A stretch of DNA of 17,869 bases from Cytophagales bacterium (GTDB lineage Bacteria > Bacteroidota > Bacteroidia > Cytophagales > Thermoflexibacteraceae). Below the pieces are notes generated by a model. It made no database searches. It was not told the DNA's origin and worked only from the letters and a program-made list of their open reading frames with translations. The translations under genes and the position numbers were made by a program. The stretch spans positions 1 to 17,869 of the forward strand of contig JAYTNF010000169.1 in the NCBI GenBank assembly GCA_043748455.1, read 5' to 3'. Positions 11,923 to 15,594 of the stretch are shown here, in pieces. The stretch's first letter is position 1. Every line of letters begins with the position of its first letter.

Positions 11923-12909
11923 TTAGCTAAATTTTAGTTGATGTCCCTGTGTCCCTTTACTTTTATTACCATTTATTGCCATAGAACCTTTATGATTATT
12001 TTCTTTCACCTCTGCGTTATGGAATTCAAAATCACTGTGCAAAGTGTCCATTGATAAATACTTTATAATCCCTGTGGCTTTATTTCTTGGCTCGAATACA
12101 AGTCTATTATTTTTAGATTTCAAATAAGAATTACGTTTCCAACCATTTATTAAGGCAACTTTTTCGCCTAATAGTTGCTTTGTGTTATGATGCTCTGTAT
12201 AAATTTCAGGTGAATATTTTTTACCATCATACTTAACTTCTGTATAAGCATCTAAAAATAAATTAGATAAATCTTTCAATGGAAGTACATTTGTAGTATC
12301 TATTTTCCAATGATTAAAATCAAAATCTGTTTTTAGTTTTATGCTTTCAACTTTTGATACAAGTTTATCAAAAACCTTTTTGTCATCTACAATACTTTGC
12401 ACAACTGCATATAAATAAAAATTTTGTATATCAGACAAGTCTTCTATACTTTTTAGGGTTACAAAAGTTACTTTTTGATTATTTGTATCTTCTCTCAATA
12501 TATGAATATTACCATAACGAGCATCACACTTATCAGAAATATCAATTACAAAAAATAATTCATCAGGATTTAATAGTTTTCGTTCACAACATTCTGCAAT
12601 AGACGTTTTATTTATTGTTTCTTGATTTGAAAGGGACAGAGGAGAAGTATAATTAATGCTTGATTTTTGAACCGTATTTTCTTCCCAATCAACAAAACAC
12701 CTTGTTTGTTGAGTATCAAACATAGCATTTATTTTTGTATTCAAATCTAGGTTTCCAACATTCAAAATAAGTAAATATTCTTGAATATCAAGCCATTTGC
12801 TCATAGAAACAAGCACCTCCTGATTTTGCTCATCAAGTATATCATATAAGTCAAACAGAAAATCCTTTTTGTTTTCAGAGAAACTTCTATCATTTAGAAA
12901 TATTTGCAT
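11923..12909 (-). CDS. Hypothetical protein (about 328 aa from MQIFLNDRSF, or 348 aa if translation begins at 12969). It is the third gene of the TRD-DUF262 / ATPase operon and a possible effector. I recognised no domain.
   Basis: ORF from the track. Its 5' end overlaps the upstream ATPase gene by 20 bp (start 12907-12909) or 80 bp (start 12969), which implies translational coupling. The sequence is mixed alpha/beta and Cys-containing (AECCERK...DKCDARYG), with no Walker motif or nuclease motif visible by eye. Confidence 0.6.
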   Translation of the reverse strand: MQIFLNDRSFSENKKDFLFDLYDILDEQNQEVLVSMSKWLDIQEYLLILNVGNLDLNTKINAMFDTQQTRCFVDWEENTVQKSSINYTSPLSLSNQETINKTSIAECCERKLLNPDELFFVIDISDKCDARYGNIHILREDTNNQKVTFVTLKSIEDLSDIQNFYLYAVVQSIVDDKKVFDKLVSKVESIKLKTDFDFNHWKIDTTNVLPLKDLSNLFLDAYTEVKYDGKKYSPEIYTEHHNTKQLLGEKVALINGWKRNSYLKSKNNRLVFEPRNKATGIIKYLSMDTLHSDFEFHNAEVKENNHKGSMAINGNKSKGTQGHQLKFS

Positions 12910-14056
12910 TTTTCTTTTTTTCCTTAAAAAGTTGATTAACATCGAGATTATACTGTTGGAAAAAATCATCTTCCCATTCTTTAATAAAACCGTCTTCTTG
13001 TAAGATAATTTCTGTTACTATGCTATTTTGTCCAAGTAAATTACGCTTAAAGAAAAATATTTTAGTTTTATCCAAATCTAATGTTTTCTTAGCAACAGCT
13101 AAACGAGCACCATTAAATATATGCTCACTATGTGTTTCACAAAAAATCTGCACGCCATTTTGTGCAGCCAAACACATTAATTCGGCAAGTTTTGACTGCC
13201 CTTTTGGGTGTAAGTGTGATTCGGGGTTTTCTATGATAAGTAAATCTCCTTTTTCTGCGGTTAGTAAAGCTAAAATTACAGAAAAAACATAACTCACACC
13301 AAAACCTACATTTTTAGGTTTGAAAGCTATGGTTGTATCTTCTATTTGGCTTTCATTGAGAAAACGAAACTTATATTCAACAGCTATTTTTGTGCTATCA
13401 TTTTCGTCATAATCAGCTTCTACCATAATATTAGGGCTGATTTCACTTAACCAAGCATTAATTTGGTCTTTGATTAAATTAGAAGTAGCCTTAGAGTGTT
13501 TTAAACTTTCGTGTGAAATCGGTGTTAATCTATTTTTTACAAAATATTGCCAAGCATATTCTCCTGTTTTACCAAAATCTTTATTTTCTAGTTTTTTATT
13601 ATCTGTATTATATCTGCCTTCATCACTTATTCTTTCTGCTTTTAAGTATTGGAACTTTTTAGGCGAAAAAATAGCTTCTTGTTTAGTATCTGTTTTTAAG
13701 ACAGAACTTTTAACTGAAACTTGGTTATTCTCCTTATTACTTTCAGAGTAACCAACAGTTTCAATATTTATTTTCTGTTCGTTAATATCAAAAATAAATT
13801 TAATAGAATTTTCTTTTTTATCAAATAAGAAAAAAATTGCATCTTTATATGTGCCAATATCTATATATTCTCCTTGCAGATTTATATTTTTTTCTTTTTT
13901 TGATAGTGTATCAGAAGATTGCCTAAGTAAAAGTAGACTTTGAATTACAGAAGATTTGCCAACACCATTCAAACCCGTCAAAATATTCAAATTTGCACAA
14001 TTTATTTCAATGTCTTTTAAGGATTTGAAATTCTTTATGTGTATATTATTTATCAT
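12890..14056 (-). CDS. AAA_21/ABC-type (OLD/RloA-like) ATPase of 388 aa, with a DUF3696-like C-terminal region.
   Basis: The N-terminus IHIKNFKSLKDIEI...LNILTGLNGVGKSSVIQSL carries the Walker A motif GxxGxGKS. GDLLIIENPESHLHP matches the Walker-B/D-loop region of AAA_21-family proteins (hhhhE-N-PE..LHP). CETHSEH matches the H-loop. A 4-bp ATGA overlap with the upstream gene lies at 14053-14056. Confidence 0.8.
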   Translation of the reverse strand: MINNIHIKNFKSLKDIEINCANLNILTGLNGVGKSSVIQSLLLLRQSSDTLSKKEKNINLQGEYIDIGTYKDAIFFLFDKKENSIKFIFDINEQKINIETVGYSESNKENNQVSVKSSVLKTDTKQEAIFSPKKFQYLKAERISDEGRYNTDNKKLENKDFGKTGEYAWQYFVKNRLTPISHESLKHSKATSNLIKDQINAWLSEISPNIMVEADYDENDSTKIAVEYKFRFLNESQIEDTTIAFKPKNVGFGVSYVFSVILALLTAEKGDLLIIENPESHLHPKGQSKLAELMCLAAQNGVQIFCETHSEHIFNGARLAVAKKTLDLDKTKIFFFKRNLLGQNSIVTEIILQEDGFIKEWEDDFFQQYNLDVNQLFKEKKKNANISK

Positions 14057-15594
14057 TTAGTAATTTCTTTTATAAGTTGTTCAATGGTTGAAAACCGAAT
14101 TCGTAAATTTTCACGAGTATAAGGTTGTTCTTCAATAGATTGTGTAAATTTAGATATTTTATTAAGTGTAAGAGCAGCTTCTTTAACAATTTTTTTCCTA
14201 CTTTTCAAAATCTCTTGTTGTTCTTTCGTAGCTATTGAAATAGCATAAGTCCAAATTTCAAAAATGGAATTAATAAAACCTGTATTTTGTCCACCTATCA
14301 TAGCTTTGGTAAAAGCTATTTCACCAAAAATATAATCTATAACAAAAAGAACTTCTTTAAATTCTTCGTAATATTTAGTCATTAATTCCTCAAAAGCAAA
14401 TATTTGTGTCATTGCGTCATCAAGTAATTCGGTACTATTGGTTTTTATGTCCTCGTAATGTGTCATTCGAAAAGCCAAATAACGCAAAGCTATTTCTCTA
14501 TCTAACATTCTTTCTTTATTAATTTCAGATACAGGAACTACTTTTTCAAAAATTGGTGTAATCTTATCATCTGTAAATTTTGCCAACCAATTTGCAGGTT
14601 TTCCCTGATTAAGTGCATGGCGAATTTCTTGTGAGGCAAGACTCAAAGCACTAGTATTAATGGATTTAAAAATTTTATATTTAACCGTTTTTGGGGTTGG
14701 AGGTTCAATAATATAAGTTATAGCTTCATATTCCTCTATATTCCTTTGTGCAGAACGGGGAAGTTGGTCAAAATTTTTGCCTTGATATTGAGGTAAATAA
14801 TATAATTCTTGAAGCAAAAAACTTTTATCTATGACAAACTGCTTAATAGCTGTTAGACGTTGAAGTCCATCTACAATTTGCCAAATATCTTCTTCTTCTG
14901 TCGTTTCTGTAGAGTCAAAATAAAAAGCAGGAATGGGTTGTTTGACAATTAAGGCTTCGATTAATCGACTTTTTGTATCATCAGTCCACAAACCTGATTT
15001 TCGTTGAAAACCTGTATTAAGATTAATCTCGTTATATTTTATACGTTTTAATATTTTATCCAAAGTCATTACACCTTGTCTAACATTAATTGTAAGTACA
15101 TCAATAGGTAAACGGTCTGGTCTAAGACTTTCTTTTTGAATTTCTACAATAGTTTCAAAATTATCAGGAATGGTAATACTTTTTATTTTTTCTAAATTAT
15201 TTTCTGCTCTTAATGCCTTTTTAAGTTCATTTTTTACATAAAACCTCCCTGCGTCATTCAGCAAAATTTGACGTAAATAAGCATTATTCTGACGAATAAT
15301 TAGTAGTTTTTCTGATGGAATAACATTTTTTTCTTCTGTAAAAATAGCTAAGTTAAAAGTTTCACTATCAAAAATAAAATCCCCATATTGAAGTTTTAAT
15401 AATTTTTTAGCAGTGTAATGTTTTTGAATATTTTTATAAGAAATATATTTAGTATTTTCAATAAAAATTTTATCATCTTTAAAACAGTCCGAATTTAAAA
15501 ATAAATAAGCTCCCTCACTGTCATTATCAGTTAAATATTGAGGTAAAATAGGTATTCCCCACGATATATTTTCCGCTAAATCTTTAAGTTGCAT
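14053..15594 (-). CDS. Fusion protein of 513 aa. The N-terminus is a type I restriction-modification S-subunit-like target-recognition domain (TRD). A central DUF262/ParB-like (GmrSD-N/BrxU/SspE-type) domain follows. The C-terminal region is helical and lacks an HNH/DUF1524 motif.
   Basis: Residues of roughly 10-150 follow the HsdS TRD pattern: ISWGIPILPQYL..., ...NTKYISYKN..., KLQYGDFIFDSETFNLAIF..., IPSEKLLIIR and AYLRQILLNDAGRFYVKNE. The DUF262 signature reads GFQRKSGLWTDD...RLIEALIVKQPIPAFYF...WQIVDGLQRLTAI, where the canonical core is DGQQR. The C-terminal 180 aa have no H..H/N nuclease motif. Confidence 0.7.
   Translation of the reverse strand: MQLKDLAENISWGIPILPQYLTDNDSEGAYLFLNSDCFKDDKIFIENTKYISYKNIQKHYTAKKLLKLQYGDFIFDSETFNLAIFTEEKNVIPSEKLLIIRQNNAYLRQILLNDAGRFYVKNELKKALRAENNLEKIKSITIPDNFETIVEIQKESLRPDRLPIDVLTINVRQGVMTLDKILKRIKYNEINLNTGFQRKSGLWTDDTKSRLIEALIVKQPIPAFYFDSTETTEEEDIWQIVDGLQRLTAIKQFVIDKSFLLQELYYLPQYQGKNFDQLPRSAQRNIEEYEAITYIIEPPTPKTVKYKIFKSINTSALSLASQEIRHALNQGKPANWLAKFTDDKITPIFEKVVPVSEINKERMLDREIALRYLAFRMTHYEDIKTNSTELLDDAMTQIFAFEELMTKYYEEFKEVLFVIDYIFGEIAFTKAMIGGQNTGFINSIFEIWTYAISIATKEQQEILKSRKKIVKEAALTLNKISKFTQSIEEQPYTRENLRIRFSTIEQLIKEITK

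Follow-up and report, generated by a model that had tools for sequence, protein, structure and literature searches.

A Type II Menshen operon with a putative colicin-E3-like effector in a Cytophagales-like metagenomic bacterium

Do three overlapping genes that join a TRD-DUF262 fusion protein, an AAA_21 ATPase and a protein without a Pfam name form a new anti-phage system, or are they another copy of a known one? The question is raised by a 17,869-nt stretch of Cytophagales DNA (GenBank assembly GCA_043748455.1, contig JAYTNF010000169.1, positions 1 to 17,869), referred to here as the window, which lies within a metagenome contig of 38 kb (ENA ERZ27315213, k141_3452122). In the list of open reading frames (ORFs) and in the sequence itself, three ORFs follow one another on the minus strand, at 14053..15594 (513 aa), 12890..14056 (388 aa) and 11923..12969. 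A first-pass annotation had read these as an inserted defense cassette whose combination of genes matched no named system. Here, we find that the locus is almost certainly a complete Menshen anti-phage system, nsnA-nsnB-nsnC. The best explanation overall is very probably a Type II Menshen system, carried as a horizontally acquired and self-contained operon by a low-GC Cytophagales-like metagenomic bacterium.

The proteins were compared with the profile models of PADLOC-DB, Pfam and NCBIfam. All three match the PADLOC models for NsnA, NsnB and NsnC, and the genes stand in the canonical order. The NsnA model is covered at positions 28-383 of 385 and the NsnB model at 1-344 of 345, and the runner-up models are tens of orders of magnitude weaker (PD-T4-2_A, 2.7e-22; AriA, 2.2e-28; GajA, 3.8e-19). 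NCBIfam assigns neither NsnA nor NsnC to a family, and its ABC matches for NsnB all stay below threshold. The Menshen system itself reportedly goes back to Millman and coworkers in 2022. A comparative study devoted to it (Li, Tan, Basu, Corbett and Zhang, NAR 2025; PMC12065111) describes NsnA as a ParB-DUF262 domain followed by ParBDB; NsnB as an ABC ATPase with EN for DE in Walker B, GxG for SGG and a DUF3696 tail; and NsnC as an inactive-PIN-like N-terminal domain, proposed to dock onto NsnB, joined to a polymorphic C-terminal nuclease. In that study, which drew on a set of 1997 loci, 9 of 15 families of NsnC C-terminal domains were placed in the BECR superfamily, and Type II Menshen includes NsnA proteins with an extra sensor domain, PsTRD1. 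The window shows all the testable hallmarks of Menshen and of the Type II/TRD subtype, and the cassette is an ordinary further copy of a named system. The claim of novelty therefore falls: the three models match in canonical order, the TRD-DUF262 architecture is that of Type II Menshen with PsTRD1 (PMC12065111), and the annotation had itself named a match to an existing system of this exact architecture as what would count against it.

The product of the first gene, NsnA, has 902 detectable homologues. Its central region matches Pfam GmrSD_N at 52.6 bits (cut-off 33.2) over residues 181-327, and the three DUF262 motifs are all intact: QRKSGLW (14986-15006), with a spacing one residue above the canonical QRxxxW; DGLQR (14857-14871); and FKSIN (14653-14670). 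Indeed, Q197, R198, W203, D242, G243, Q245, R246 and N313 are invariant in all 71 of the NsnA homologues compared. NsnA thus has the ParB-like DUF262 domain with QRxxxW, DGxQR and FxxxN motifs, then ParBDB, and no DUF1524 (Pfam, E up to 0.1); the Pfam scan found no HNH or other nuclease domain in it. In front of this core, structure prediction confirms a TRD-DUF262 fusion, in which residues 1-140 are well modelled as a single TRD fold, the added N-terminal sensor domain of the PsTRD1 class that marks Type II Menshen. Three homologues of the NsnA core with 39-41% identity (P0070, P0073 and P0119) carry Mrr_N (PF14338) at the N-terminus instead of the TRD. These close homologues are an example of sensor-domain swapping on the same DUF262 core.

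NsnB, encoded directly downstream of nsnA, scores above the Pfam cut-offs for AAA_15 (93 bits) and AAA_21 (88 bits), and slightly below the cut-off for DUF3696 (21.3 versus 22 bits). Its Walker A motif is GLNGVGKS; the EN-for-DE and GxG-for-SGG substitutions agree with the published description of NsnB (PMC12065111), the DUF3696 helix follows near the C-terminus, and Pfam finds no Toprim domain. NsnC, encoded directly downstream of nsnB, has nothing in Pfam or NCBIfam at standard thresholds. In PADLOC it matches NsnC models only (E up to 0.01), PDLC03917 at 2.1e-8 over residues 220-327 and PDLC03889 at 6.5e-5 over residues 1-147, in keeping with the third Menshen gene, a polymorphic N-terminal domain joined to a C-terminal toxin or nuclease. 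The first-pass calls of a DUF262 domain with DGLQR plus a TRD for gene 1, and of an OLD/RloA-type AAA_21 ATPase for gene 2, are both supported by these results. For gene 3, the statement that it has no recognizable domain holds for Pfam and NCBIfam but not for PADLOC, and the suggested role as an effector is likely.

ORFs 1 and 2 overlap in a single ATGA stop/start sequence at 14053-14056, exactly as had been read from the sequence. For ORFs 2 and 3, an overlap of 20-80 bp (12890-12969) had been proposed, of which the shorter value stands. The formal start of ORF 3 at 12969 would give 80 nt, whereas the ATG at 12909 gives a 328-aa protein and an overlap of 20 nt (12890-12909), the gene-2 stop codon being 12890-12892. 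We take 12909 as the real start of nsnC because the same protein is called at 328 aa in public data (P0001), and because an M-x-I-F-x-N-x-x-S N-terminus is kept in distant homologues. At about 28% GC a random frame is calculated to meet a stop roughly every 12 codons, and ORFs of 328-513 codons are therefore far beyond chance. The reading as a co-transcribed three-gene defense cassette is borne out. Both junctions (12888-12901 and 14051-14064) carry the same TAAATGATA stop/start sequence. The ATG embedded in the NsnB/NsnC junction is out of frame with NsnC, whose start lies 16 nt upstream, and this junction sequence may be left over from an ATGA coupling in an ancestor.

The flanks had been described as a terminator-flanked gene and a membrane protease, and these prove to be a PIG-L-family gene ending at 15720 and a Peptidase_M50B gene 67 nt downstream of gene 3. 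The 15-bp hairpin between the PIG-L gene and nsnA terminates the former and delimits the operon on its upstream side. A candidate Bacteroidota-type promoter can be read just upstream of nsnA, and its -7-like motif sits within a block of DNA conserved with a second genome, the metagenome-assembled genome (MAG) GCA_013299115.1; transcription of the operon may start from it. A sigma-70 promoter scan gave no excess over shuffled sequence (19 matches versus 22.7 expected), the expected outcome in an organism of the Bacteroidota type. Feature coordinates are collected in Table 1.

Table 1. Features of the Menshen operon and its boundaries, in window coordinates.
Feature	Position	Strand	Basis
nsnA, 513 aa, sensor subunit (TRD + ParB-DUF262 + ParBDB)	14053..15594	-	PADLOC NsnA, E 7.3e-91, residues 141-512
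NsnA residues 1-140, TRD, Type I restriction-modification S-subunit fold, counterpart of PsTRD1	15175..15594	-	predicted structure
NsnA residues 181-327, ParB-like DUF262 NTPase	14614..15054	-	Pfam, motifs
NsnA residues 328-513, C-terminal helical domain (ParBDB, name from PMC12065111)	14056..14613	-	within PADLOC NsnA model
nsnB, 388 aa, ABC/OLD-type ATPase with DUF3696 tail	12890..14056	-	PADLOC NsnB, E 1.3e-101, full length
NsnB Walker A GLNGVGKS	13952-13975	-	motif
NsnB signature GFGVS	13292-13306	-	motif
NsnB Walker B-like LLIIEN	13226-13243	-	motif
NsnB ETHS	13127-13138	-	motif
NsnB DUF3696 helix, residues 329-376	12929-13072	-	Pfam
nsnC, 328 aa, effector subunit	11923..12909	-	PADLOC NsnC models, identical public gene call
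NsnC residues 1-200, N-terminal domain, presumed inactive PIN-like, NsnB-docking	12310..12909	-	PADLOC N-terminal model; role from PMC12065111
NsnC residues 236-328, colicin-E3-like (BECR-fold) putative ribonuclease domain	11926..12204	-	conserved motifs
NsnC DTLHSDFEFH	12019-12048	-	motif
NsnC NHKG	11986-11997	-	motif
Horizontally moved three-gene unit including 36-nt leader	12017..15630	-	blastn, 89% DNA identity with GCA_013299115.1; flanks unrelated
Candidate Bacteroidota-type promoter	15619..15645	-	TTTG 15645-15642 and TAtaTTTG 15626-15619, 24 nt upstream of NsnA ATG; read from sequence
Hairpin terminator, perfect 15-bp stem then T-run	15679..15711	-	dG -18.2 kcal/mol, z -4.7

That the three genes belong together is evident from their distribution. 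A related cassette lies between sucC and purA in the Cytophagales MAG GCA_013299115.1, with 82-88% protein identity and identical overlaps. Homology between the two cassettes, at 89% DNA identity, begins 36 nt before nsnA and ends shortly after the NsnC catalytic motif; the triad moves as a single unit of 3.6 kb, and the chromosomal sites that it occupies are unrelated. GC content is 28.1-28.4% in the three genes, 28.2% over the shared block and 34.5-36.4% in the flanking genes. The proposal of an inserted cassette is thus supported both by composition (28% versus 35-36%) and by the different context of the same cassette in the MAG. Three more TRD-type NsnA relatives (49, 42 and 36% identity) are each followed by NsnB with the same 4-nt overlap, and their third ORFs match PADLOC NsnC models, so that the MAG and all three relatives carry the complete triad, a co-conservation check that the first-pass annotation had called for. 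The contexts of the three relatives all differ: recR/dsbD; an MmeI-like restriction-modification (RM) gene and enolase; and relaxase/MobC/HEPN. The last of these settings is that of Pedobacter cryoconitis (L088 1-5000), where the TRD-type copy adjoins relaxase, MobC/NikA-like and HTH_17 genes and a HEPN protein and probably resides on a mobilizable or integrative element. In the relative with the 49% identical NsnA (L086 8821-9813), NsnC is only 243 aa and has a different C-terminal domain; 4 nt after it comes an 85-aa acidic ORF without a PADLOC match, which is possibly an immunity-like protein or a split effector partner.

What would the third protein do? A word-indexed search of 5.8 billion clusters returned three close relatives of NsnC, and HMMER, run exhaustively over 1.84 billion representatives, returned 15 homologues at E up to 1e-3. 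The region common to the homologues is mainly the C-terminal 90 or so residues, with the motif INGW..N..LS..NNR.VF...DT.H.DFE.HN....NH.G, in which N255, N267, R269, D288, E295, H306 and G308 are invariant and H297 nearly so. We classify the C-terminal domain as colicin-E3-like (ColE3-like) within the BECR superfamily, and not as a member of PF09000. AlphaFold2 (AF2) models the N-terminal region poorly, and residues 12-79 have pLDDT values under 50. In this domain, strand 1 is followed by a conserved Asn (N6).

Several observations qualify the ColE3-like assignment. Position 291 is His in 11 of 17 homologues, Lys in five and Thr in one. The PF09000 gathering score of 22 bits is not reached: scores for three of 17 family members are 14.3-16.2 bits, and the NsnC of the window has no match to this family at E up to 10. 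Foldseek, run with the full NsnC model against PDB, returned noise only (DnaK and PTP1B, E > 0.1), which is probably due to the low-confidence N-terminal half of the query. A profile of the C-terminal domain searched against PDB sequences with hmmsearch found no colicin, and gave a chance match to a cathepsin propeptide at E 0.32. It is quite possible, if short of probable, that the locus is Menshen and NsnC something other than a ColE3-type rRNase, cutting tRNA, mRNA on or off the ribosome (as a BECR toxin of the RelE/HigB/YafQ type) or specifically phage RNA, or that the PIN-like domain is itself the nuclease or a co-nuclease.

NsnA and NsnB keep their NTP-binding motifs intact, and the putative active site of NsnC is conserved. 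With NsnC read as ColE3-like, we infer the following order of events. NsnA would act as the sensor, its TRD, DUF262 and ParBDB domains binding invading DNA with sequence and/or modification as the cue. The signal would modulate the NsnB ATPase, for which the model of Li et al. predicts a tetramer like that of GajA; its DUF3696 tails, in pairs, would clamp the N-terminal domain of NsnC, as in Septu and PARIS. NsnC would then be released or activated, and its ColE3-like RNase domain would cut RNA. The most economical target would be the decoding centre of 16S rRNA, as for colicin E3, leading to translation arrest and abortive infection. The scheme gives no account of how the TRD would spare the host chromosome without a linked methyltransferase. 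We give the full chain from sensor through ATPase to effector about an even chance. Ribosomal RNA as the specific target of NsnC is a tentative and rather doubtful proposal. It is unlikely, though worth stating, that a restriction-type, sequence-reading TRD sensor is coupled here to a colicin-E3-type effector that cleaves 16S rRNA, a "DNA-sequence-triggered ribosome killer", and that the ColE3 affiliation of the present family of NsnC C-terminal domains is also new.

Might NsnA instead cut DNA by itself? In a Type IV-like or Type I-related restriction system, the TRD-DUF262 protein would do so alone or with distant HsdM/HsdR, and genes 2 and 3 would be accessory. DUF262 is indeed the sensor/NTPase of the nucleases GmrSD, BrxU and SspE, RM enzymes have the same TRD fold, and there is a weak PADLOC "REase_II" match (3.9e-10). 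Such a system is very improbable here, since NsnA has neither DUF1524/HNH nor another nuclease domain, no hsdM, hsdR or methylase gene lies within 21 kb, the NsnA model surpasses all others by about 70 orders of magnitude, and NsnB and NsnC are strictly co-inherited with NsnA. Equally improbable is a module that is not primarily anti-phage, whether a selfish addiction or toxin module or a partition-like ParB/ABC-ATPase module. The cassette moves horizontally alone, one relative adjoins relaxase/MobC genes, and ColE3-like toxin domains are typical of conflict systems generally; against this, the window lacks antitoxin and immunity ORFs, an integrase, tRNAs and flanking repeats, and RM or BREX systems neighbour 27.9% of Menshen loci. 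Moreover, mutation or deletion of the DUF262 gene abolished Menshen phage resistance according to a 2023 review, and PMC12065111 cites the S. silvestris Menshen system as experimentally validated. By analogy, the present copy would be expected to confer an anti-phage phenotype. Least likely of all is a previously unnamed three-gene system that merely shares the common defense domains DUF262 and AAA_21 with known ones, for although Pfam and NCBIfam give no system-level name, gene 3 has no match there and NsnC has just 15 detectable homologues, all three proteins match Menshen-specific models (two near full length at E < 1e-90), the TRD-NsnA architecture is already published (PMC12065111), and the relatives have the same triad with third genes that match NsnC models.

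The neighbours of the Menshen operon are the PIG-L and M50B genes and genes for a vault-protein-like protein, a 7TMR-DISM/SpoIIE phosphatase and an alpha-2-macroglobulin; no defense, integrase or methylase gene lies near the operon, and the window shows none of the signs of an integrative element that were looked for, namely tRNAs, Rfam RNAs and direct or inverted repeats on its flanks. A scan of GTDB representative genomes with the flanking M50B protease, aimed at an empty site where PIG-L and M50B adjoin, found best matches of at most 49-51% identity (Cyclobacteriaceae, cyanobacteria), and the source lineage therefore has no close GTDB representative. The 33-nt palindrome at 15679-15711 recurs at the intergenic sites 12404-12436 and 13334-13366 of GCA_013299115.1 with 97-100% identity, in both orientations. 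The two genomes thus seem to share a REP-like family of intergenic hairpins. The vault-like gene (8462-10948, plus strand) encodes an 828-aa bacterial homologue of the eukaryotic major vault protein with Pfam MVP_shoulder and a weak Vault_3 match, and is divergent from the phosphatase gene (5914-8136) across a very AT-rich spacer of 325 nt. From position 1 to about 4300 (minus strand) the window holds the C-terminal-to-middle part of a bacterial alpha-2-macroglobulin gene of 1839 aa (bMG3/MG2/A2M), and ORFs seem to be missing from the list at the left end because this gene extends off the window.

As a discovery, the locus has limited value: the system is named, it is covered by PADLOC and DefenseFinder-type resources, and its TRD subtype has been described. 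Beyond that, it links this NsnC family to ColE3 and gives a clear case of the triad moving as a unit. The mechanism of Menshen is still unsolved, a literature search having found no biochemical study of it, and the locus is a clean example on which to study it. The well-modelled single TRD can be used to ask which DNA feature NsnA reads. If the TRD-to-ColE3 coupling is true, it would be the first concrete, testable biochemical output for Menshen.

How, then, does the operon compare with known systems? PD-T4-2, GmrSD/BrxU/SspE, PARIS, Gabija, Septu, AbiL, MADS and Type I RM were each considered and rejected, as model scores are far weaker and partner domains absent. PARIS, Septu and Gabija likewise have an ATPase of the OLD/ABC type (AAA_15/AAA_21), whose proposed role is to hold a nuclease effector and control it, and NsnB matches AriA at 2e-28 and GajA at 4e-19. 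In contrast to these systems, the window has no AriB (DUF4435/Toprim), PtuB (HNH), Toprim domain or GajB helicase, and Menshen has a separate DUF262 DNA sensor, whereas PARIS senses the phage Ocr protein. GmrSD, BrxU and SspE share with NsnA the ParB-like DUF262 NTPase (QR..W, DGxQR, FxxxN) followed by a helical DNA-binding domain, which in those proteins is a sensor of (modified) DNA; NsnA differs in lacking their DUF1524 HNH-type nuclease, the nuclease role having moved to NsnC by way of the ATPase. Unlike HsdS and half-S proteins such as Esub1, NsnA has a single TRD fused to DUF262 and no second TRD, and unlike Type I RM loci, the operon and its 21-kb neighbourhood give no Pfam match to Methylase_S, N6_Mtase or HsdR.

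NsnC resembles the toxins of colicin E3, cloacin DF13 and pyocin S6 (PF09000) and the CdiA-CT of Enterobacter cloacae, but it is intracellular and fused to an NsnB-docking domain, without receptor or translocation domains and without an immunity gene. The catalytic constellation of colicin E3 is D510, H513, E517 and R545, and the equivalent of H513 is not invariant among the NsnC relatives. Compared with PF09000, NsnC has additional invariant residues in N255, N267 and R269, as well as the near-invariant H297. Closest by far is Type II Menshen with PsTRD1, which has the same three families in the same order with the same translational overlaps: an NsnA with an N-terminal TRD-like sensor, ParB-DUF262 and ParBDB; an NsnB with the EN Walker B, the GxG signature and the DUF3696 tail; and an NsnC-type N-terminal domain with a C-terminal BECR-fold nuclease. 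Like the operon in the window, it is a polymorphic and horizontally mobile cassette. There is no architectural difference between the two, and the copy described here is a rare NsnC allele of Type II Menshen with a ColE3-like C-terminal domain.

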